A stretch of 60,891 nucleotides of DNA, filler included, from Basidiobolus ranarum (taxonomy: Eukaryota): assembly GCA_040143965.1 (NCBI GenBank). It is 2 parts of 2 records of this genome, joined end to end, with 100 filler letters (N's around TTAATTAATTAA, not from the genome) between each part and the next. Parts side by side here need not be neighbours in the genome. Positions count along the whole stretch, not along the records: positions 30,544 to 60,891 come from JASJQH010006976.1; 1 more part is not named here. One strand, 5' to 3'. The translations under genes were made by a program, and so were the position numbers. The notes beneath the pieces were generated by a model that saw only the letters and a list, made by a program, of their open reading frames with translations, was not told the DNA's origin and ran no database searches. Shown piece by piece: positions 14,754-52,007 of this stretch. Numbering within the stretch: the stretch's first letter is position 1; the number at the start of each line of letters is the position of its first letter.

Positions 14754-17700
14754 ATGAGTCGGTCACGAAGATCGCAAGGTTATCAACGATACATTGACGA
14801 GGACGATTTCAGATCTTTCAGAGATAATTTCAAACCCCAATCCCATAACAGAGGGTTCAATAGTAGAGGTAGATACCCTCCACCTTTTTCGCAGCAACAT
14901 TTACCACCTATCTCTGACGAAAAGTTGAGATGTCTACTCGAACTCCGAATAAATCTTCGCAATGTTTGCTTTTCAGCTACTGCAGCTGAGGTTAAAAGCT
15001 TTCTTTCACAATTTGGCCATGTGGAAGTTTGTTCTATAGACAAAGATGAATATACTGAACGCCCTTTAGGTACAGGATATGTGATATTCAAACCCCCTCC
15101 AGAAAAGCTGACTTTCCTTTCAATGAACCATGTATTTAAAAGAAGAGCTCTGATACTTGAATTACCTGAACCAGAAAAATATCAACGTAGAAGTCATTCA
15201 AATGAAACTTTTAAGGCGGACGTGCTTCAGTTTGGTTTTTTGGTAGGGCCGACGAAATACTTAACTGAATGGGAATTAAAAGAAAACGTGAATCTAAGTA
15301 TAGACTATACAATTAGAACAATCAACCTTCAGTTCGATGTACGTGGTCGGGAATACAAACTAACTTCGAACTTTAAGGAAGTAGAACATGAAATTGCGGT
15401 CCAGGATAACTCGAATCAATTGATCTTGACCATGGCCTTCAACTATCCCCCTCGTTTTTGGATTAAAGACGACAAGCATGTTGGCAAAGATCGGTTCTAT
15501 TGGAGTACTCACGATTGCTGGAAGCGTATAACTAAATTATGGATGGTTCCGGTTACTATGGAGATGGCTTCAAGTAAAGAGCCAGCCACGATTTATTATC
15601 CGGACGAGGCGGTGCAATTGGGAAACTGGAGAATTTATCGGTTACATTTTAATGGAGCCTCTCAAAGTAGGATAAGACGTGAATTGGGGAATTTTATTAC
15701 TAAGGCTTCGAAGTACAACCTGATAAAAAAGCGTAGTCTCTTTAACTCGGTAGAAATCGCCAATAAAGACGAGTATACTCGATCACGTGTAGATATCACA
15801 GCACTTCCATTCGAAATACAATACATGATCGAATGCTTACTCTCTCATGATGTAATTAACGAGTATAGTGTTAACCAAGATTTCGTGGATCTTTTAAGCG
15901 ACATGTCACCTAGAATAGCCTTAGCAACACTGGAATTGATGCACGGGCTGAAGAAACCCATTTATAACATTATGAAGTCTATGATGAAGCAGACACAAAA
16001 CCTCAACCAGATCTATCGTACTACGGGAAAGGTGGCTCAACACGCCATCATGATACGCAAAGTAACCATAACTCCAACAAAGATTTACATTGAACCACCC
16101 AGCATTGAGACCTCCAACCGGGTAATCCGACATTTCTCCAATGAAAGAGAAAATTTTCTGAGGATAAATTTCTCCGAAGAAGGTTTTTTAAAGATTGGCG
16201 TTAACACCACCACTTTGGGACAGGTATATAGTCGACTTTACAACGTTTTGGTTCATGGTCTCGTTATTGGTAATAAACACTACGAGTTTCTCGCCTTCTC
16301 GTCCAGCCAGCTCCGTGAGCATGGATGTTGGTTCTTTGCGTCCACCGAAAAAGTGACTGCACACTCTATTCGTCACTGGATGGGGGACTTTCGATCGATC
16401 AAGAACATCGCTAAATATGCTTCTCGAATGGGTCAGTGTTTCTCTAGTACTCGAGCCATTGCTATGCAACCGGTCAAAGATATTCGGATGATACCGGATA
16501 TTGTCAGAAACGGATACACCTTCTCGGATGGTGTGGGTAAAGTGTCAATTGCTCTATGCAAGAAAATTGCCAAAACGTTGGATTTAGACCATGTTCCACC
16601 CGTCTTCCAATTTCGGTTGGGTGGTTGTAAAGGTGTCCTGGCACTATCCCCTTTCGTTCGAGGTGACCAGATACAGATTAGGCCTAGTCAAATCAAATTT
16701 GAATCTCACCACAACATCTTGGAGATTGTCAAAGTCTCTACATACATCCCATGCTATCTCAATCGACAAATTATCACATTGTTATCTTCCTTAGGAGTTC
16801 CGGACCAAGTATTTTTGAATCTGCAACAACACATGATAAAGCAGCTCAAGACGATCTCCACGGACGACGCGACAGCCATCAAAGTATTAACTCAAAATAC
16901 TGATGAGTACGGAATCACCCGAAGAATGATTGAGCTTATCAAGGCAGGACATCGCACGAGACAGGATCCATTTATCGTTAATTTGTTAACGCTTTTCCAA
17001 GTCTCCTTGCTCAAAGATATCAAGACAAGAGCACGGATCCATGTCTCCAAAGGATGCTTTCTAATGGGGGTATTGGACGAGACCATGAGTTTGCAGGAGA
17101 ATCAAATCTTCGTACAATACTCGGATCCAGAGAACCCAAACAGGCGTAAAGTGATTGTAGGTACATGCATCGTTACTAGGAACCCATGTTTTCACCCCGG
17201 CGACATTCGTGTAGTTCAAGCGGTTAATATTAAGGGTTTATCCCACTTGTACGATTGTGTGGCATTCTCTGCGCTTGGCTTTCGAGATACACCCAGCCAA
17301 TGTAGTGGCGGTGATTTAGATGGAGATTTCTTCACGTAAAAGAATTCTATTTACTACTTGTCTCATTCTTTAACTCATACTAACCCTTCTCTTAGTGTAA
17401 TATGGGACCCAAATCTTATTCCACCAACCAAGAATTACTCTCCTATGGAGTATGACCCTCCCGGCCCAGTGGAAGTGGATGAAGTACAGATAGATCACAT
17501 CAAGAAGTTCTTTGTCAATTACATCGCTAGCGATAACTTGGGACAAATATCGAATGCACATCTAGTCCACGCAGACAAACACCCTGATGGGGCATTCAAT
17601 GGGATTTGCTTACGATTAGCTCAATTGAATTCACGTGCGGTAGATTTCCCGAAAACCGGAGTACCAGCAGAATTCGAACCAGGCCTAAAAGTCAAAGAGT

Positions 17701-18527
17701 ATCCGGATTTTATGGAGAAACCGGAAGGGATTCCAACCTACAACTCGACTAGAATCCAGGGGAAGATGTATCGTTCAATAACTACTCAAAAATTCGTCCT
17801 TGCACCACCGGTAGGGTTAGATGAACGCTTACTAGTACCAGGATACGAAGAGTATCTCGAGGATGCTAGAAATCAAAAAGCAAGTTATGACATGACTTTA
17901 TTCGGGATTCTAAAGCAATATGGAATTCCAACGGAATACGAGGTGATCAGTGGGTTTATGGATAAATGGGTCATACTACTTGGTCGTAGAAAACATAGTG
18001 TACGCGAGCGTGTTATGGATTCCTATATGGCAGTGCGTTCTGCGTATATACATCAATTCGAAGAAGAATTCTATGATAAAAGCACTCAACTTATCCCCTA
18101 CGACGCCAAAGAAGCTATCTACAAGAAAGCCTCCGCGTGGTACTATACTACATATAGTCCAGATGAGGGAAATAAGAACAGTGCTATTCCTACGTTCTAT
18201 TCATTCCCTTGGGTTGTAGATCGTTATTTAAATGAGATTGCATTAAATCATCATCACTTGTCACAAACTAAACCTAAACCTAAACCCAGTATCTCCTTAT
18301 CTGGCCAAACATATCTGCTCACTTCGGAATCTAAGGACTCAACCGGCAATCAACTGAACGAAACTGTAGAGGTGGCCGATATCGAAGGAATGGACATTTC
18401 AGAAGCCAGCCAAGTCAGTGATATGGAATTGTCAAACGACCTTGTCAGTGACTCTACACGATTCAAGCAGTTTGATATTAACGATGAAGAGGATGATTTA
18501 GAGGAATTTGCAATGGATTTCCTTTGA
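14754..18527 (+). CDS. Eukaryotic RNA-dependent RNA polymerase (RNAi pathway) with N-terminal RRM
   Basis: RRM-like start (LRINLRNV...GTGYVIF), FLAFSSSQLR, ASRMGQCFS, FSDGVG, QFRLGGCKG, RNPCFHPGD and catalytic SGGDLDGD. One 60-nt intron at 17336-17395 joins the two ORFs. Confidence 0.96.
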
Positions 18528-39834: not shown

Positions 39835-40631
39835 GTATACAAGAACTGTGTGATTTCTGGCAACACCTTTTCATAAATAACCATTGAATTTTAGGTAAAA
39901 AAAAGTTAGTTGTAATGGTTTAGTTAATGATCCTTCTGAATAACAAGAAAATTCTACAAAAGTATATAGACTTCTATTATTGATCATCAGCGTAGACTTT
40001 GATGCACCTTTCAGGACCATTATTGCGCAAATTTTTGAACCTAAAACATGAATGCGTGCATCAATATCAAGGTATTCTGTTCTCGAGAACGATACCACAC
40101 TGGTAGGCAACTCTTGACTTCTCAGGTTGGCGGTGTACCAGTAGATTAAGCACTAACATTTACCAAAACATAATGGCAATGAGGCAGCAATTGTGGTGAA
40201 AATAGTGGAAAATACAATTAATAAAGCAAGGATGAAACACATGCTTAAAGGACTAGTAAATGTAATGTAAATGCATTCCGTTACTACTTACACTATAATG
40301 TGTAATATCTAAAGCTTATGTACTCCTTGCCGAAAGTAAATAAGTAAATTGTTCGATATCATATTGAATGGAACTATGAATTATAGTAGTATTATTAGAT
40401 AATGTATGTACCTTTTAATTCATCAACAATTACTCCCACTTCTATATTTCTACACTTGGAGGATATTCACCATATTCCATCGTGTTGGCAAATAAGTATT
40501 AACTCAAAAACGCTTTCGAATAATGTATACTCCTCTATTTGGGATTAAATATGTCATACATGTTTCATAGGATTACCGTTAGTACAAACTAAAGCTCGCG
40601 ATCTTGGACATCTGCATATTGATAATATGTA

Positions 40632-40935
40632 TTACTCTAGTATATTGATGGAATGGTATTTTACCTTGATGGTTGGGTAAGAATCATTTTGCTTATGATA
40701 CATTTCAGGATTTTTTTTTGAGATCATGGGTCTAACAAATTCTAGTGTCCAGTAGTTACCACGGAGATCGTATGCCACTCCAATCTGTGTGAAAACTGGA
40801 TTCAAGATATTGTTACGATGTTCAGGTGAGTTCATCCAAGCACTCATTACTGAAGATTCATCACCAAATCCTGTAGCTACATTCTCACCAACATTATTCC
40901 ATGCGTATCCAATTTCACTAATCCTTTGTTCTTAT
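40632..40935 (-). pseudogene. CAP/SCP (PR-1/YkwD-like) domain gene fragment
   Basis: EQRISEIGYAWNNVGENVATGFGDESSVMSAWMNSPEHRNNILNPVFTQIGVAY...YWTLEF is the C-terminal half of a CAP domain. The upstream frame is closed by stops and I could not find an intact N-terminal half. Confidence 0.75.
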
Positions 40936-41528
40936 TTATTAGAAGTGGTTTATCTAGTCAGAGTTGACTATATTGTTGAGTTTTCCATATTAATCATCTT
41001 GGCCAACATAGCTAACCAATACAACGGTAGTCAATTGGTTTGTACTTTTATTTTACTACTTCTCAGTCTATAGATTATTATCATCAAGTATCGTTCATTA
41101 CTAGAGGCTACAAATTGCTTTAAACGAATGTAATCCAATTATAACCATCTTGGGGTAAATCGACATACATGGTAATATTCATTTCATTCGCGATCACTTC
41201 ATCCAAAAATGGTGAAAGGTATCATATACTTCTTGAATTACTAAACTCGGATAATTCCCACATGTATGTATGTAACCCGCGTCCACCTGGGGAAATTAAT
41301 AAGTCACGCATTAAGTTGATTGCAGTCTCAAATATGCCGCATTGATTCCGTTAATATATTGCTGAAAATGATTTGACTTGGAAACTGCAGGAGTTTAGGG
41401 GAATCAAGCATTAAGAGTGCCAAGTGTTGTGGGAGGAAAAACGACTACTTCTCACCCAAGTATAAAATGTGTTCAACTTTTTACCAGATACTCATTCAAT
41501 TATTCTATTTCATTGCTTAGCAACTATC

Positions 41529-42503
41529 ATGAAAGTTACACTTGTCGCCTCTTTATTCTACCTTGCTACTGTAACTGCTCTACCTACTTATAATGCTGGT
41601 AGTTCTGGAGGAGGTCACGATGTTGACGACTACAATAATGGTCACTCTGGTAGCAATGTGGACTACCAACACTCGGACGCTGGCGGTGGTGATGCTAAGA
41701 ATTACGGTGTAGATGATTATGATAACCATGACGGTAATGGTGGTGGAGGTGAACACGATGATAGCTATGGCTCTGGTGACCATGGTGCTGATAATGACTA
41801 TGCAGGTGATGATCATGGTGGCGATGACAGCTATGGATCTAGTGGACATGGCGGTGGTAGTGATGATGATTATGAAGGTGGTGGCCATGATGGCGGTGAT
41901 GATCATGAAGGTGAAGGCCATGGGGGCGAAGACAATTATGGATCTAGTGGAAATGGCGGTGGTAGTGGTGATGATTATGAAGTAGGGGAGCATGGTGGTG
42001 ATGCCGATGATTATGACAATGGGGGTAGTGGTGGTAATGGTGGTGAGGCCAGTGAAAGCTATGGCTCGGGTGATCACAAGGAAAGTGGGGGAGATGATGA
42101 ATACAGTCACGGTGAAGATGAAGATGACTATGATAGTGGAAATGGCGGTAGTGGTGATGGGTACAAATCTGGTGATCACGGAGGAAACGGTAGTGGTGAC
42201 AATTACGACTCTGGTTCAGGCTCTGGTGGACATGACGAGGATGATAAAGGCTATCACGCAGGTGGAGTGGGTACTGGGCAAAGTTACGATACCGATGGAC
42301 ATGGAGGAAGTGGTGGCAGTGGTGGTGATGATAGCTATACTAGTGGCAACGGTGGTGGTGGAAGCGATAACAATCACAGTGGTGATGACTACGAAGGCGA
42401 TCACAGCGGGACTGATGAAAGTTACGATGGTGGTGAAAACCATTACAGAAAGAGATTCAACAAAAGAAGAATTAATAGTGTGCGTCCGGGATTGACCCTC
42501 TAA
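41529..42503 (+). CDS. Secreted low-complexity Gly/Asp/His/Tyr-rich repeat protein
   Basis: TATAAAA at 41461; signal peptide MKVTLVASLFYLATVTA-LP; imperfect HGGDDSYGS / GGGSDDDYE repeats; basic tail YRKRFNKRR. Confidence 0.8.
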   Translation: MKVTLVASLFYLATVTALPTYNAGSSGGGHDVDDYNNGHSGSNVDYQHSDAGGGDAKNYGVDDYDNHDGNGGGGEHDDSYGSGDHGADNDYAGDDHGGDDSYGSSGHGGGSDDDYEGGGHDGGDDHEGEGHGGEDNYGSSGNGGGSGDDYEVGEHGGDADDYDNGGSGGNGGEASESYGSGDHKESGGDDEYSHGEDEDDYDSGNGGSGDGYKSGDHGGNGSGDNYDSGSGSGGHDEDDKGYHAGGVGTGQSYDTDGHGGSGGSGGDDSYTSGNGGGGSDNNHSGDDYEGDHSGTDESYDGGENHYRKRFNKRRINSVRPGLTL

Positions 42504-43170
42504 ACACTGGGAGAGAATATGTCTGATATAGTATTTATTTAATCACATATATCAATAAATTATACTTGAATTACTTGCCACAACTTTACTGCTGAAGTTA
42601 CAATATAAATCTGGAATTATACAACAAGAATATTAGTCGATACTCTACGTAACAGATGGAGACCAAATCAAATGCATTTCCATATTTTCACATAGAAGTT
42701 AATCAATGGGCAACAATGAAATATGATATGCTGCTGTCTGAACTCCATGTTTGGAACTCAAAAATGTGTCATAGAAACGTCCAGTTAGACCAACTCTAGG
42801 ATTTTTGCCATAACCTAAAGTTGTCATTATAGGTACCTGATGGCTAAGCCGGATATCAATATTTCAATCTCAAACAACCACCACAGGCCAAAGGATCAAG
42901 AGAAGCTATTTTGGTTTCATTAAAAAACAATTTCATTTTGTATGGCAGTGAACAAGACTATAATAGCAATCAATAAGATTCTATTTAAAATGTAATTTAT
43001 TATTATCATTAGAAATATCTTATTCAATGTTGGCTTTTCTGACATATCCCAGTTTGTTAATCATTGTTATCAGAACTTTGTTAGCAATCAAATTTAGTAA
43101 ATAGGATAGTATTCACCCCTAATAGTGTACTGTGAAGAAGTTTACCACAGTATCCAGTAAATGACAGTTT

Positions 43171-44754
43171 CTACCTAGCAGGTCCAAACCACCTATTCAA
43201 TACTACTTGCAACTGCTTATGTTCAGCGAGTGAAGGCTCTTCAGCAGCCCATGCGATGTATCCATCTGGACGGATCAGTAATGCAGCTGGATAATTATTT
43301 TGCTGTTTTCGAGCACTCACCAATTGAATCCTATCAGTCCATCCTACGATTGTTTCCAATAGAGTATCTTTTCCTGTCAAATTGAGCAATATCCCCCGGC
43401 CAGATCTCATTACTTCGCCGAGACGCATCCCATCAGATAAAAGAAGATCTTCACAAAAATGACCTACTAACTGGTGATCTCCTTCGTCGTGTCCGTAGTC
43501 AATGTGTGAGCTACTGACCATATCGGCGAAGTACCGCTTAGCGTCAGCTAGGCCTAATACTTCCGACAGAACCTCTCGCAAGGCCATAGACTGTGGGTCT
43601 GGGCGAAATAATGCAGTCTGGGCTCGACTGTTTCGCATTACTAGTTCAGCCGGAGCGTAACGCTCCATGGTGTAAGTATCTAGCAATGTCTCAGGAGCAA
43701 GATTACGAATTACCAGGCCCAACTTCCAGCCAAGATTTGCCGCGTCTTGTAGGCCTAGGTTGAGTCCCTGTCCTCCAAATGGCGGATGAACATGTGCAGA
43801 GTCACCAGCAAGCAGGACGCGACCAGAGCGATAGGTTTCTGCTTGGCGAGCGTGGTCGGTAAAGCGAATGGCATTATTCATGCTTGTGACTGTGACTTTT
43901 TTACCACTTACCCGGCGCAGGCAGTTCTGAAACTCCTCAAGGGTCACCTCTGAATGGCGGTCCGGACTATCTAGTCCAAACTCGAAGACACGGATGGTCC
44001 CTGGAAATGGCGTGACTAGAAGCATACCCCGTTCCGTAACGGTTATTCCACGAGGTAATAATTCAGGCTCAGCTACATCAACCAGTGCGCTTCGTGCTAC
44101 CATCGTTGGATCTGTACCGATAAATGCAATACCAGCGGATTTACGTACCACGCTGCGTCCCCCATCGCAACCTATGACCCAGTCTGCTGTGAGTGTCTGT
44201 CCATCACTGAGCTCCACCGTCACAGTTTCCTGCCCAGAATTGATGCGTATCGCCTCAGTAGCGTGACGAACTTCAACTCCAAGGTTTTTTGCGTGTGAGG
44301 ATAAAAGTTCTCTTACAGCTTGTTGTTGCACCAATAGAGGCCCCTTCAAAGATTCTAGTTCGTCCTTTTCTACAACAATCGGTATTCCAGCGAAATGTCC
44401 CTGAATTCGATGTCGATCGTGTCCTAAGGTAGATAGTAAGGACTTGAATTGCTCACTCATGAGATTATTTGTCCCGTCAGTAAGTATACTCAACATCCCA
44501 TTAGCAGGTGATTGGGCCATGGTAGCTCCTTTGACCAGGGTTTCCTCGGTAATGCCACGGAAATCTAAGGTGCGCAAAGTTCGTTCATTCAACCCACGGT
44601 TCTCTTGAGCAGTATACTCGCGTGGTTTGTCTTTATATCTTACACCTACTTCAGTACTCTCGAGTACAAGTGGATTCACTCCAGCGAGCTTCAATTCAGC
44701 GGCTAGGAAGAATCCAACTGGTCCGCCTCCGACAATAACGACTTCGTATTTCAT
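43171..44754 (-). CDS. Group A FAD-dependent aromatic monooxygenase, bacterial type (Rox/RdmE/PheA-like), intronless
   Basis: GGGPVG dinucleotide fold, IGCDGGRSVVRK (DG motif), YRSGRVLLAGDSAHVHPPFGGQGLNLGLQDAANLGWKL (GD motif), C-terminal LIRPDGYIAW...RWFG. Confidence 0.93.
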   Translation of the reverse strand: MKYEVVIVGGGPVGFFLAAELKLAGVNPLVLESTEVGVRYKDKPREYTAQENRGLNERTLRTLDFRGITEETLVKGATMAQSPANGMLSILTDGTNNLMSEQFKSLLSTLGHDRHRIQGHFAGIPIVVEKDELESLKGPLLVQQQAVRELLSSHAKNLGVEVRHATEAIRINSGQETVTVELSDGQTLTADWVIGCDGGRSVVRKSAGIAFIGTDPTMVARSALVDVAEPELLPRGITVTERGMLLVTPFPGTIRVFEFGLDSPDRHSEVTLEEFQNCLRRVSGKKVTVTSMNNAIRFTDHARQAETYRSGRVLLAGDSAHVHPPFGGQGLNLGLQDAANLGWKLGLVIRNLAPETLLDTYTMERYAPAELVMRNSRAQTALFRPDPQSMALREVLSEVLGLADAKRYFADMVSSSHIDYGHDEGDHQLVGHFCEDLLLSDGMRLGEVMRSGRGILLNLTGKDTLLETIVGWTDRIQLVSARKQQNNYPAALLIRPDGYIAWAAEEPSLAEHKQLQVVLNRWFGPAR

Positions 44755-44822
44755 GACTGATCAAATTAGTATTGGCTTGATAAAACGGGCTTTCTTATGA
44801 AATATCATGTATTGACATTCTC

Positions 44823-44830
44823 TATTTATA
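44823..44830 (-). promoter_or_regulatory. TATA box of the monooxygenase gene
   Basis: Minus-strand TATAAATA about 70 nt upstream of ATG 44754. Confidence 0.45.
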
Positions 44831-45057
44831 CCTACTTGACTTTATGGCTACTTTTCGTCCACCAAATTACAGCCTACTCTTGGCTCATTTCAGTTAATAG
44901 ATTGCGGACGGTTTAAGGATCTAGTATTCGATAACAGTAATTTTTGATGCATCAATTACTGAAATTGAATTTATTGATCTTATCATTGCCTAAATATTCG
45001 GCTTTTCGATAATAAATTTTTGAGAAATTATTGTGAATAGACATCAGAGAGGATTGT

Positions 45058-45433
45058 TCGGAACCAGCGAATTCACGGATAAATGGAGCGACTAATAATC
45101 AACATTTTCAAAAAAGTGTGTAATCGCTAAGATAAGACTCGATATAGCACTTCAAACTACAATATCGAAATGGTATTCGTAGTGATACAGCTATGAAGGC
45201 TTACTCTAATGCTATTAAGATATCTACCAATTCAATCTATGGAGTTTATGGCGCTAAAGGTAATCTACATTTATTAGCTGAGACTATTTCTAGAGTAGGT
45301 CGAGAGAGTTTAGATAAAGCAGTGATCGGAGCCAGAGAATTCACGGATAAATGGAGAGACTAATAATCAGTATTCTCATAAAAGTGTGTAATCGCAAAGA
45401 TAAGACTCGATATAGCACTTCTGACTACAATAT
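45058..45433. repeat. Two 108-bp diverged direct repeats
   Basis: 45058-45165 and 45326-45433 share TCGGA.CCAG.GAATTCACGGATAAATGGAG.GACTAATAATCA...GATAAGACTCGATATAGCACTTC..ACTACAATAT. Confidence 0.9.
45148..45363 (+). pseudogene. Family-B DNA polymerase fragment (motif B / region III)
   Basis: Stop-bounded frame reads ...AMKAYSNAIKISTNSIYGVYGAKGNLHLLAETISRVGRESLDKAV..., i.e. K-x3-NS-x-YG-x2-G...A-x2-I-x3-GR. Confidence 0.75.
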
Positions 45434-47248
45434 TTTTTTATGCAATAGAAATTTAGACCATCATTGAATGTGCCTGAAAGCAATGTGATCTCATTTGAAT
45501 TGTTTGTCGTAACTCCTTGAACTGCAACTTGCTTATCAATATTGATATTTATGCCGACAAATAATGTCAATATTTTCACGAGTATGTGTTCATATATGTA
45601 CTTATCCAAACCTCATCATCAATATTTAACTTTCTTGGTGACGAGCAAACATATGAACTTGCCCTAAAGATCCACCAATGTACCGATGAATAAGAAACAC
45701 TTTCTTAGGGAACTTCACATAAGCATCTCCTTTGTCACGTCAACAGGAATGTTAGCGGAGAATAGGTGAACCTCTGCTTCGTTGAAGGAAGAAACCTTAG
45801 CCCTTCGGTACTACAGTATTACCAGAGCCAACTCTATTTTACATTTCTAGTCCAACGCTGCTACTCTGGCATTATGTGGACTACAATCTGTGTATACGAT
45901 CTCTTATACCCCACCAAAGCTACCCACGTCACTTATATCAATAGAAGTCCTAGATTATTCGCACCTAGCTTAGAATTCATCTTTTGGCCACGCTCAATGC
46001 AATTATCATTTTTACCTTTGCCCCATTCTGCAAATGGATATTGAAATCCGTTGGCTTGAAGTACTTCTTATGGAACCATAGTTATGGCCTACAGAATCGA
46101 TATTAACAGGGTCAGAGTACAGATCATAAGTGGCTACTTTGTTATTGAATGGGCTCTGATTGGTTGGGTTATAACACTTGAGTTTAAAGACATATTGATA
46201 ATCTTCCAAAGGCGAATCCGAGGTGTAAGCATATTTGTTAGTATTAGAGAAAGTTAATTCACCCATTGGTCTTCAGTCGGAGTACCCTCACTGTAGTCGC
46301 CTCCATAAAACCCTGCTTCCTCTATCTGTAGAGCAACCAGAGCTAGTAAAGCATGGTGACTGTGGTTGGAGACACAAGAGTAAAATTCACCAGTGATACT
46401 AAGACATCAGGTGTAATGCTTCATAGAGCATCTTTTTATGCTAGAGGAAGTTCTGTTTATGAAACGTTTCAACCTGAACTTTTATGTCAACTCCACAGTG
46501 AAAATGAATTTCACAATGGATTGGCATTTATCTGTAAGCTTTAATTTCTTCTAATTCATAGTCACACAATAGATATAGCATATACATATGAAAGAGTAGA
46601 GTGATTTGATATATGTATTAAGTTGAATGCCTACTTAAGCCAAAACCAAAGTAAGGTTCTCCTCAAGTAACAATCTTGTGAAGATTTAACTACCTTAATG
46701 ATGAATTCGTCACACATGCTCACGTGCATTAAATAAGGAAATGTTTGTTTATGATGTATTTTAATTGATTGAATGCCTGGTATATCTTTATTGTTCCTTA
46801 ATCTACTCCACACCCACTGATTCGTAAGTTAGATACAAGAAAGCTGGATTCGAATGTTTCACTTGTCTCGCAACAATCCAATCATCATTGAAGCTATAAA
46901 TAGTGAAAATAGAACTCGCTTTCAAACTGGGTTAGATAGTTATGACTCTGAAATGCAGTTCAAACTGAGTTAGTTTTTTTTCAACTGTGATCATAATATA
47001 AGAAGTGGTGCATAGCACATCCCAAATAATTGCATAGCCTTTATGGAGATCAAAGTGAGATCTTATTAGCTCATTTCAGGGCCTAATAGGTTTTGGCGCA
47101 ATTGGCACTCATTGAGTGCATTCGAAATCTTCAACAATCATCTATAGCACATACCTCATCTACCCTTGCATTCAGTATATAATCCCTGACTTGTACTTTC
47201 ACTGCTATCATCAATTTCTAAATAGTCTCGTCGGTAGCATTTTCTAAG

Positions 47249-49085
47249 ATGCATCCGTCTAAATCCACTCAGCCTTCCCCATACAAAAATTGTTCCCGAA
47301 TCTTGGCCTTTAGCTTAACCTACGGCCTACTTCTATCGACTTTTGCCACCCCAGCTTCTGCTGATGTTTCCTCAGATCTTTTAAAGTGTTTGAAGAAAGC
47401 CAATGTCGAGACAGTTGCTCCCACTGATACTTCCTTTACCAACGCTCGGTATGGCTTTGATCTCAGATATACATACAAACCTAGAGCTGTTGTCTACCCT
47501 GCGTCGTCTGCGGAAGTATCCAAGGCAATCAAATGTGCCGTTGACAACAAAGTAGCTATTGCTCCACGTAGTGGAGGTCACTCTTATGAAGGATACTCCA
47601 TTGGTGGTACTGATTTAAGTTTGGTTATCGACTTGAAAAAATTTACTACCGTTAAAGTTTCGAAGAACCTCGCCACTGTTGGTGGTGGTGTGAAGCTCTC
47701 ACAATTATACTATCGTCTTTGGAACGCAGGTGGTTATGCAGTTCCTGGTGGAACCTGCCCCTCTGTTGGTATTGGCGGTCACACTCTGGGTGGTGGGTAA
47801 GTGAATATATTTAACTCTACTTTGATAGCTCTCAGCTGCAAACATTTGACTCACGAATCACTTCCTTCTCTTTCTTGTAATTTCCTTAGGTTTGGCCTGT
47901 TCAGTCGTAAATACGGCTTGATGGCTGATAACCTTGCCTCTGTGAAGGTTGTTCTAGCAAATGGAACCGTAATCGATGCTAGTGAATCCAAAAATAGTGA
48001 TCTCTTTTGGGCCCTTCGTGGTGCTGGTGGTGAGTATCTTCATATTATGGACATTTTTTTATTACAAATTTCTTACGAGCATCAATTTCCATATAGGTGG
48101 ATCCTATGGTATAGTTACCGAGTTTGTCTTCAAAGTTTTCAAGGCCCCAACAAAGGTCACAACATTCTCCTATGACTTTAACTCGAAAGACTATCTGAAG
48201 GCAGTGAAAGCATATAATACATGGGGTGTTAGCGCTAGTCGTGATGTTGGTGTTGAAATGTACTGGGACAAGAATGGCATCTCATTTTATGGAACTTTCC
48301 TCGGAACTAAGGACAAGTTGAACGCCGCTGTAGCGGTAAGTACAATTACTTTTCTCTTCTCTTTACTACACGATAACTGAAGAAAATTTCTGCATCGTTA
48401 GGGTTTTCTTAAAAATGCCCCTAAGTACACTTCTTCAGTTAAAGAATCTAGCTTTTTGGAATCAATTCTTCGTTGGTCATACTTGGATACCAAGAATATC
48501 AAGGACCTTGACACTCTCCCCGAGAAAAAGATTCAAGATTCTCGATACACCAAGGTAACTAGAATTCGGCGATTTTTACATGATACGAAGTGTTAAATAA
48601 TTTTTTTCTAGGGCAAATCACTGATGTACAAGAATATTTTATCTGACGAGGATATTAATATCATCAACAAATACGTGTCCAAACCCCCCACCGGAGCCAC
48701 CGCCAGCTATGTCATTATTGATTTGTGGGCAGCTAGTAAAATTAACGAACAACCTCAAAGCGCAACTTCTTTCATTCATCGCTCCACCACCTTCGCAATT
48801 GAATATCTTGCTGAATGGGGAGACAACAGTATCGTTTACAACAAGCCTGACTGCAAGCCATGCCTTAAATGGATCAATGACTTCTACAACGAAGCTAGCG
48901 TTGCTTTCTTGAAGCGTCAAACCCCAATTGAGGCTTACCAGAACTATATTGATCGTGATCTCAAAAATTCAATGACCGCATATTATGGCAGTGCCAGTAA
49001 CATTAAGAAACTCAAAGTAGTTAAGAGCGCCTATGATCCTGGGAACAATTTCCGTTTCCCTCAAAGCATTCCATTGGTTGGTTAG
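47249..49085 (+). CDS. Secreted FAD-linked oxidoreductase, berberine-bridge-enzyme-like (AA7-type), multi-exon
   Basis: Signal-like N-terminus; RSGGHSYEG (covalent-FAD His), GTCPSVGIGGHTLGGG (second covalent Cys), DLFWALRGAGGGSYGIVT; C-terminal BBE domain YQNYID...YYG...VKSAYDPGNNFRFPQSIP. Confidence 0.93.
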
Positions 49086-52007
49086 ATGGAATTCCCCGCA
49101 TTATCTTATTCTCAGCTCCATACCTCATGATCTTGAATTTTCATCGAGATAATTTTGTTAGTTAATGGAATAAATTAAATTTGCATATTTTATGAAACAA
49201 AGACCAATTTTTCTCGATATGTATCTAGGAACCAGCGATGGTATTTCTAATTATATCTGGCACATCTTAATCTGTGTATCAGCCTAACCCCAGCATAGAA
49301 AATGATGACAAAGAACGGTTGAGAGCAATGTAGTAACAGTCACCTCAGAACGTTGTTAAGAAGTGTAAATATACCACTGATATTACTTTTACTTACTCAG
49401 ATTGACTGATTAGAATTCATTATTCTCTACATTTTCCTACTGCCAAATCCGGGCCTCGCCGGAATAATTTTTGTATTTGATCTTCCTATTCGCGGAGTCA
49501 GAACTTACAAGTATATAAGGCTTGCAGTGGAGTTTCAGTTACGCCTGAGTTGTCTTACTATGAGAGAACGTGTTATGAGTGAGAGTAATAACATGACCTA
49601 TTTATGAAATACAAAAAGGGTTTAACCACTAAGAAAAGCGAACACATGTAAAACTCAAGCTATCCAGGTACGTAAAAAAAATTACAATGATGGCTTTCAA
49701 GTTGGATGTATTCCATCTCGCTAAGAGTTACTGAACCTGATTTTTCTGTGTTTTCTAATCGTGGTCAAGGCTGAGCTTGTGCTAATTTTTTTTATTCTAA
49801 ATAGCATGACATTTTACTCAATAATATTGAAATAATATGGATTCTTTTAGTAGTAGTACTATATTGTAGTCATGGTAAGACCTGAGAAACTACTGTACAA
49901 TACCAACTGATTGCAGTTTGGAAGAAAACTTCCTGTTTACACTCACATCCAATGGAAGCCCCATTCTCAAGACTGACAAGACTTAATTCTTTTCAATGAA
50001 AATGATATCTGATTATATTTGCCTATTTATTATTTCCTTCACCGAACTATTTTTAGTGTACGTTTTTGAACGTGAATAGCAGATTCTTGGGATAAGTGAA
50101 CACTAAAGTCTTTGCGATCCTATCTCAGTTTCTTATTATTAATACATATCAGTACTTTCTTGCATTTCATCCATAGAATCTGCAATATACTTTCAATATG
50201 CCCCATGAGCAAGTGACTGGTAAGCACAATGATACCTATTACATACTTTATGTGGGAAAAAAATGCCTTGATCAGAGACAGAAGTAGTAGGGTATATGTA
50301 CTGATACTCTGGTACTTACAAATATATACATGAGAAAGAGCTCCATCCAACAGAACATCTCTCACAGCTGGACAGATTGTATCTGTTGAAGTATTTTGGG
50401 AGCCTTTTAGAAGTGGTTTGGAGAAATAGAGAAATTGGTAGTTTTCACTTGTTGATTTATCGAGTATTCAGTTGACATTTATAATTTTGTCAAGATGTAA
50501 GCAAACTAACAAGTGGAATGTGTTAAGGAAGATCCCAGGAACATGTGTGCAAAGTTTGGAGCTTCTGGCACAAGTTTGAAAAATCTATATGTCTGAGAAC
50601 TTTGCAGTAAATTTCTCTTGAGAATAATGGGTAATATCTTAGGTCAATACAAGATAACTAAATACTAAGCTATATAAGACTATATAGGTGTTTAGGCAAT
50701 GCTAATTTCAACAGTTGCTAGTGTGGAATACCAATGTATACTGCATCACAAGAAGTAGTCAAATGACTTCCATAACAATAGATACTGCTATTTGAGCTAT
50801 GATTAGGCTATGTAACAAATATCAAGTTGAATCATGTAGTGAATGCAGATTTACTATGATTTGAAAAATACAAGTAAAAAAAGAGAATCGGGTATGAGTG
50901 CTAGTGAATATAGAACAGCAAGAAATACATCCTCAAAATATTGATTACTATACTCCGGAATGGAATGGTAATGGCCAAATATTTCTGGTAGATTGCCAAC
51001 TATTTCAAACAAGTATTGTATTGAAACGGTTGCGTGTCAAAGTATAGGAACCGATGTAAGTGTTTGGGATAAGTGGCGAGAAAGCTAGAATACTCGCTAA
51101 TTGAATGATTTCAATTTCAGATGATATCCAATCATGGTAAATATAAAGATACTGAATATACACCACTCATGAGTGAATAGATTTAAGCTGCCAAGAACAA
51201 GAATTAGATATTTGTGAATAGGATCCATAGTTAAATTAGTAGAGTCAATGTTCCAACTCAAGTCAATCGATAGGAAATATTAAGATCTTTGTCATATAAT
51301 ATGCAGGTGTAAACAAGCACAATATTGGAAATGATAATCACCTTTTCACCTATACTGCATAAAATAGTATCTAGATTGATGAATGTTTATGCAGCAACTA
51401 ATCCGGTTAATATTCTTAACAACCAATTTTTTTCCAGATTTAGTATTAGTACACTCAAATGTCAAGCTTCCTGTATCACCCCGCATTTCGTGGTATAGCA
51501 TCCACAAGTAGTGGTCTGAGAGCATAATCTCTGCCAGCCGGTTAAATTTACTCCACAGGCTGAAATATAGTAGGGTCAATCGTTTAATAGTCTAGGATTT
51601 GCACCTAGTAGAGCAACCTACATATAATAAATTCTAAATATTTAGAAGCCCAAAAGAAGGAAACACTATGTTAAGAAGTTCAAATTCGATTCAACGTGGT
51701 AATTTTGAGGAGTGGCAGGATTTTCAAACCAGTTCAAACTAGCCTCAATCGTTTACCCCACGCTTTTAAACCCTCTTGGTATACAAATGGCATTAGATTA
51801 TCTATCATCGACCTTATGAACTAATCAGATGGTTCGAGGACTTTCAATTTGTAATACTACTATAAAGTTTTAGACCGTCCCTGAGGAGGGTTAGTGGTAG
51901 AGAAAACTAACCGCCAAGGGAGGGTTAATGTGTATTTTGGATACTTTATTCTGAAAAGATTCTAAGGATAAATAGTTTATGTACCTAACCAATAAACGAT
52001 ACTAGGA

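Follow-up and report, generated by a model that had tools for sequence, protein, structure and literature searches.

A probable dead fragment of a fundsalphavirus-type DNA polymerase gene in an intergenic region of Basidiobolus ranarum

The window, i.e. the whole stretch of 60,891 nucleotides from Basidiobolus ranarum analyzed here, consists of two contigs joined end to end, one of which (C6976, from an assembly of 65 Mb and 13,754 contigs) carries a decayed piece of a family-B DNA polymerase (PolB) gene. Very probably, this piece is a dead endogenous viral fragment, namely about 210 bp of a compact fundsalphavirus-type PolB gene, from motif B through motif C, which lies in fungal intergenic space as one of at least 13 scattered pieces, is unlikely to have a function and came in separately from the neighbouring monooxygenase gene. 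The features of the locus are collected in Table 1.

Table 1. Features of the relic locus and its anchors (positions along the window)
Feature	Position	Strand	Description
Gly/Asp-rich host gene	41469..42503	+	left-hand anchor of the paralogous segment on C631
FAD monooxygenase	43171..44754	-	527 aa, intact, intronless, actinobacterial type; PF01494, E=3.4e-70
Repeat copy 1	45050..45165	+	116 bp; local duplicate of copy 2, before the motif-B stretch
PolB fingers helix, motif B and next helix	45166..45324	+	53 open codons; matches PF00136 and the clade profile
Repeat copy 2	45318..45433	+	116 bp; first ~55 nt with PolB homology and a decayed motif C in another frame; last ~60 nt outside this homology
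Host-gene pseudogene, no Pfam family	45618..46355	-	right-hand anchor; the intact C631 paralog is a 283-codon open frame with a likely signal peptide

The polymerase fragment and its relatives

The motif-B peptide is held by a stop-to-stop frame of 71 codons (45148-45363, plus strand), as the sequence-only reading of this DNA had stated. That reading had also assigned the peptide to motif B of an RNA-primed PolB, and the profile and database matches agree with it. PF00136 matches the peptide with E=2.4e-4, the 20.5 bits of this short piece narrowly missing the curated cut-off of 23. Among 1.84 billion representatives scanned, the sole match to the peptide was P0001, a 693-aa PolB, with 65% identity over the matched stretch and E=1.8e-9; P0001 itself matches PF00136 at E=3.2e-48 and possesses the exonuclease domain. 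It heads a compact clade of 15 proteins, and the profile of this clade scores 62 bits on the relic, the only significant match in the six frames of 44700-47300. The atlas search returned generic PolB clusters only, the six best by structure being mostly Nucleocytoviricota; the structure-database search gave generic family-B matches only, and the phage and plasmid searches gave distant matches only.

The relic peptide (53 codons from 45166) shares 49-68% identity with all 15 compact-clade polymerases, versus 37% with Pol alpha, 37-41% with Pol delta and 30% with Pol zeta of the host, Pol epsilon giving no match; the host enzymes are taken to be alpha, delta, zeta and epsilon on the basis of sequence features. 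Near-identity to a host replicative polymerase is absent, and at 30-41% identity to alpha, delta and zeta the relic as a host polymerase was ruled out. The spacing between YG and GR had been described as short and unlike that of Pol delta, alpha and zeta. Part of this shortness belongs to the lineage, since every one of the 15 clade members has an interval of 20 residues and the seven others counted have 21-22, and part of it is decay, the 18 residues of the relic being two below the intact clade members. Motifs A, B and C do not stand together in one frame: motif A is absent, and motif C is decayed and in another frame. The locus is a relic and provides no working enzyme. Its polymerase part begins 412 bp from the start codon of the monooxygenase gene (44754, minus strand), close to the 400 bp announced, and the first repeat begins 296 bp from the same codon.

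The compact-clade proteins are 668-702 aa long and share 45-100% identity, and the next relatives drop to about 30%. They come from metagenomes and from one Cunninghamella echinulata assembly, and a protein of Umbelopsis sp. WA50703 (KAM3578177.1) is a cluster mate of another member. PF03175, the profile of protein-primed PolB, is not among the Pfam matches of P0001 or of the 14 other clade rows, and on this ground a protein-primed killer-plasmid polymerase was ruled out as the identity of the relic. The C. echinulata PolB (P0005/P0123) is represented by four near-identical accessions in one cluster (CAO3620950.1, CAO3620962.1, CAO3621019.1 and CAO3621031.1), the longest contig being 68,961 bp. 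In the available part of Gong's table, three adjacent polymerase matches lie on one C. elegans contig (PMC7017919), and the two observations together make a tandem amplification of the polymerase gene in such elements possible.

In a tree of 39 references and the fragment, the relic was placed within the compact clade (SH-aLRT 95), nearest to P0013. A FastTree analysis of 100 rows, from which redundant rows above 45% identity had been dropped, put the compact clade inside a 53-row group (97). This fungal group also includes polymerases of Linnemannia, Mortierella, Podila, Ramaria and Kickxellales assemblies, and its sister is a group that contains Pithovirus LCPAC104 (99). With IQ-TREE in quick mode on 47 rows, a 28-row fungal group (99) fell within a 40-row group (97) that includes toursvirus and Pithovirus rows. 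The sister relation to Pithovirus is starred in FastTree and was not settled by IQ-TREE quick. The placement with fundsalphaviruses was made by proxy rows (Linnemannia elongata, Mortierella, Podila, Kickxellales), Gong's sequences lying outside the trees; Linnemannia elongata is presumably the renamed Mortierella elongata. Judged by these proxy rows, the compact clade nests among the fungal 'fundsalphavirus'-type polymerases near Pimascovirales, and its PolB, as in fundsalphaviruses, falls with the fungal clade beside Pithovirus. The tree placement supports the proposal that the fragment derives from a large DNA virus lineage.

In the wider group, two metagenome loci (L054 and L055) carry RPB1, RPB5, D5, TFIIS and a weak UDG match. 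This content is in line with the available description by Gong (PMC7017919), in which D5, an SNF2 helicase, an SAM methyltransferase and RPB1/RPB2/RPB5 are the linked genes of fundsalphaviruses. Concerning the gene context of the compact clade itself, viral and metagenome scans gave relatives at 38% identity at most, or nothing. This clade is putatively viral, and that it would be a capsid-less persistent replicon appears unlikely to us.

Sister relics across the genome

Comparison of P0001 with the genome gave 18 matches out of 24 scored, comprising three host polymerases, two open frames (on C12581 and C13304) and pieces on 12 contigs, C6976 included; a DNA search added a further relic on C2249. 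There are at least 13 relic loci in all, three extra weak matches being kept outside the count, and 13 of 13 score best against the compact clade. The 12 other pieces measure 99-540 bp and represent different parts of the polymerase gene, and stops interrupt most of the relic matches. The DNA of the window relic is 86% identical to that of C7781, 71% to that of C8070 and 72% to that of C2249; in blastn among the relic loci, the PolB stretch is the sole link to the window. Pfam matches on the relic contigs are of host type (PX, Gti1/Pac2, enoyl-CoA hydratase, uricase, IDO, hexosaminidase, PAS, CBM5/12 and importin). With their stops and fungal-type neighbours, these loci are decayed endogenous copies in a fungal genome, as is the case for fundsalphaviruses. 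Over 37 codons only, the relic and its C7781 sister show 5 synonymous differences in 26.5 sites and 11 non-synonymous ones in 84.5 sites, a divergence that appears close to neutral. A second block (C7781 versus C867) was left out, its frame being shifted by an internal indel.

The genes on C12581 (1-1281) and C13304 (1-1101) are uninterrupted viral-type PolB frames of 427 and 367 codons on tiny contigs, which score better against other branches; the former groups with polymerases of Mortierellaceae and Ramaria assemblies, far from the compact clade. By sequence, these two frames represent a second viral-type PolB lineage. The D5 primase-helicase is scattered likewise (9 matches out of 11 scored, L272-L280): a small contig carries one of them as a long open frame, and several are short pieces. 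Using the frames of L054 and L055 in tblastn, queries that are distant (27% PolB identity) and hold no RPB2, SNF2 or SAM gene, we found no second viral gene beside the relic in the window or on the 12 other contigs. At the window locus, PolB was the only viral gene found by Pfam and tblastn. The capsid profile PF04451 had no match in the genome, and the control was equally silent.

A solo-LTR family of 313-330 bp (TG...CA) has a copy in the window (50384-50713) and 3,392 first-look candidates in the genome, and 16 of the 24 copies with both ends show a perfect 5-bp target-site duplication. For the relics on C867, C1289, C1128, C408 and C7580, the distance to LTR pieces is 0-310 bp; these pieces are often truncated, tandem or inverted, and the relic on C867 is bracketed by two opposite ones. 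Altogether, LTR pieces are found no farther than 100 bp away for 4 of the 12 other relics and no farther than 550 bp for 4 of 9 D5 loci, as compared with 1 LTR in 101 kb of host-gene DNA. LTR-mediated capture as a general mechanism was nevertheless rejected, since LTRs cluster among themselves too (for 4 of 29 solo LTRs, another piece is no more than 100 bp away), so that shared tolerant sites suffice. An LTR remnant at the window locus was also rejected: a 23-nt match to an LTR end (44972-44994) has E=0.056, and none of the region tests reached significance (112, 76 and 132 of 150).

Structure and possible origin of the insert

The 71-codon frame had been presented as flanked by 108-bp direct repeats. 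Diverged direct repeats are indeed there (116 nt, 89% identity, 13 mismatches, period 268, the 108-bp core having 10 mismatches), but the frame starts in repeat 1 and ends in repeat 2, and the repeat opens with decayed PolB DNA. Mapped genome-wide, a check which that reading had called for, the repeat gave two matches, which are the two local copies. Homology to the sister relic of C7781 starts at 45166, where repeat 1 ends, with none into copy 1, and homology to C8070 continues about 55 nt into repeat 2. A 21-nt stretch of repeat 2 shares 16 of 21 positions with the motif-C DNA of C7580 (0 of 2000 shuffles) and 14 of 21 with that of C8070 (10 of 2000 shuffles). The outcome of an anchored extension test was modest (71 of 2000 shuffles for copy 2 and 696 of 2000 for copy 1), and the motif-C remnant is short. 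As the repeats are only local and begin with a decayed motif C, they point to a local duplication of the insert and not to LTRs, and the idea that they are the ends of an element was not borne out. The insert would thus consist of motif B, the decayed motif C and the untraced ~60 nt, and its last 116 nt would have been copied in front, i.e. a partial tandem duplication with the 268-nt period.

Other views of the repeats were tried and discarded. When the whole repeat was considered as PolB coding DNA, unanchored alignments to three sister relics were mostly at shuffle level (8 of 500 for the best, 117-271 of 500 for the other five) and the front alone holds. The tail of repeat 1 is not the natural upstream of motif B, as no leftward extension was obtained (the score was reached in 1000 of 1000 and in 257 of 1000 shuffles), and neither flank holds a decayed second motif-B copy (181 and 213 of 500 shuffles). 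Contigs of a public run tile the locus in the order repeat-insert-repeat with zero differences; this run is possibly the source of the assembly and so is not independent. In this run (X1), contig depth over 45059-45366 reaches 23.9, the flanks having 12 and 15.6; two additional short junction pieces differ by 1 and 2 letters. The doubled depth and the variant pieces suggest a second haplotype, one more 268-bp unit or a form with a deletion.

The surroundings of the locus are those of a fungal chromosome, with intron-bearing genes, Gti1/Pac2 and PDR-type ABC transporters. Positions 39995-46355 are paralogous to C631:702-4189 (64-80% identity), and the C631 segment has neither the monooxygenase nor the relic; no homology is detectable inside the interval between the paralogous anchors (59-85 of 200 shuffles). 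Pol delta matches occur on three contigs (C6878, C206 and C4085), which, taken with the paralogous segment, hints at an old genome duplication. A gene of C631 (L223:5103-6292, minus strand) contains a bacterial extracellular solute-binding protein domain. Elsewhere in the window, 14754-18527 (plus strand) encodes an RNAi-type RdRP; its two long frames cover successive parts of one Pfam profile (1-441 and 442-582) and are probably split by an intron.

We propose that a viral PolB piece of about 210 bp inserted into the intergenic space of a fungal chromosome, and that loose viral DNA would have been captured by end-joining at chromosome breaks, like mitochondrial inserts. This mechanism is put forward by analogy, the insertion junction and any microhomology being no longer readable: the small size, the dispersal and the rearranged structure resemble those of yeast break-repair inserts, which, in the available account, are ~45-300 bp long and composite in nearly 4,000 of ~33,000 cases (PMC11372161). 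A second copy of the 3' 116 bp would have been placed ahead of the insert when it integrated or shortly afterwards, as the divergence between the copies (11%) is similar to that between the relic and its nearest sister relic (14%), and neutral decay would have followed.

One could also wonder whether the repeats are the LTRs of a TRIM-like miniature retroelement with the PolB piece as its inner region. Their length would fit short LTRs, and the sole LTR-like traits are a TG close to the left and a CA close to the right end, at equal offsets in both copies. However, identity continues beyond the CA in both copies, the ends show no matching target-site duplication, no further copy of the repeat exists in the genome and its front derives from PolB; we hold this reading to be extremely improbable. 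Hardly better is the chance that the relics derive by erosion from a single large viral genome, integrated and then split by retrotransposon invasion and rearrangement. The often rearranged solo-LTR pieces close to a third of the other relics would agree with such a history, as would the retrotransposon sequence reported near such elements in the available text of Gong 2020 (PMC7017919). On the other hand, at least six contigs share an overlapping motif A-B stretch, which would need many template copies, no second viral gene was found beside any relic, the LTRs cluster with each other, and the window locus is devoid of a significant LTR remnant. Capture of loose pieces is the reading that we retain.

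Another question is whether the monooxygenase gene and the PolB piece entered together, either as a virus-borne actinobacterial gene or as a composite break-repair insert from which the gene was kept and the rest decayed. The same host anchors are 3,131 bp apart in the window and 588 bp apart on C631, gene and relic both lying in the extra DNA, and the monooxygenase gene is intronless and single-copy at full length, with no close relative elsewhere in the genome. However, a loss from C631 or two separate insertions give the same picture. Furthermore, the GC3 of the monooxygenase gene (0.41) is host-like (0.40-0.44 in four host genes) and unlike that of the relic (0.19), and the 26 ORFs scanned on the 12 other relic contigs, a subset of their ORFs, include no similar enzyme. 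The best match of the enzyme is from Nonomuraea (53%), and among its best 120 matches the named rows are bacterial, nearly all actinobacterial, with no viral or fungal row. Its best family match is rifampin-monooxygenase-like, far under the curated cut-off (362 of 800 bits). Basidiobolus genomes have been reported, in the portion available, to contain 2-5% bacterial-type genes (PMC7466969); if the present host is alike, one such neighbour among 13 relics would not be surprising. A joint arrival is very unlikely in our opinion, and equally doubtful is the narrower idea that a virus ferried the gene. The sequence-only reading had seen in the viral element a possible vehicle for the bacterial-type gene; with no second viral gene found at the locus, no viral row among the named matches of the monooxygenase and a host-like GC3, this claim is unsupported. 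The monooxygenase is probably unrelated to the relic, and independent arrival remains our preferred reading.

Relation to known elements and meaning

Fundsalphavirus NCLDV elements were described in early-diverging fungi by Gong, Zhang and Han in 2020, with viral polymerases bearing stops and frameshifts in 14 fungal species (PMC7017919). As far as the available text goes, the present relics resemble them by an RNA-primed viral-type PolB, by broken nuclear copies and by a position near Pithovirus/Pimascovirales, and their hosts include Cunninghamella, Mortierella and Basidiobolus (PMC7017919). Unlike them, the relic belongs to a long-branched sub-clade of 668-702-aa polymerases, for which Gong's hits are too long, and the locus holds only a ~210-bp piece with no linked viral genes found (PMC7017919). 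The longest matches given there, 2,427 bp for Cunninghamella and 2,385 bp for Basidiobolus, are longer than a gene for 690 aa, so that the compact branch may lie outside that sampling. No description of a compact-PolB sub-clade was found in titles and the starts of abstracts, and Gong's supplement figures and S6 Fig of PMC13533422 may include it; the available parts of PMC13524828 and of bioRxiv 10.64898/2026.06.19.733378 contain nothing on it. The chances that this branch is undescribed so far appear about even.

Parallels can be drawn with three other kinds of DNA, each on the basis of partly available sources. The relic is similar to the NUMT-like and composite break inserts of yeast in size, dispersal, intergenic site and rearranged or composite structure, whereas its donor is viral and theirs mitochondrial or Ty1, the mechanism here being deduced (PMC11372161). 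The Mycodnaviridae of zoosporic fungi are likewise giant-virus DNA in fungal genomes; unlike the relic, they lie near Algavirales/Imitervirales and have capsid genes, a distinction made from the description in that paper, their sequences lying outside our trees (PMC13533422). The same paper calls the earlier reported fungal elements distant from Mycodnaviridae (PMC13533422). Finally, the cytoplasmic virus-like elements, or killer plasmids, of Cunninghamella, Umbelopsis and Coemansia occupy the same host genera and combine NCLDV-derived housekeeping genes with the lack of a capsid (PMC13348850). Their PolB is protein-primed, in contrast to the compact clade with its PF00136 match, exonuclease domain and no PF03175 match (PMC13348850).

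A more daring hypothesis would combine these elements: the compact-PolB clade would be an undescribed miniature branch of pithovirus-related fungal viruses, possibly a capsid-less free replicon in Mucoromycota and related fungi, that sheds NUMT-like scraps, the genome would record two lineages (the dead compact one and that of the open frames on C12581 and C13304) and, in the boldest form, one insertion would have delivered the monooxygenase. Taken as a whole, we judge this combination quite unlikely.

The locus itself is a dead remnant of an endogenous fungal virus type known in print since 2020. If it were true that such a virus ferries bacterial genes, this would bear on the source of the many bacterial genes in these fungi; the present evidence does not show it. 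What the analysis adds is that the fungus has met at least two distant lineages of such viruses, and that their DNA enters as small scattered pieces. Assemblies of Cunninghamella and Umbelopsis contain compact polymerases whose frames are open, and these fungi are culturable hosts in which a live element could be sought.
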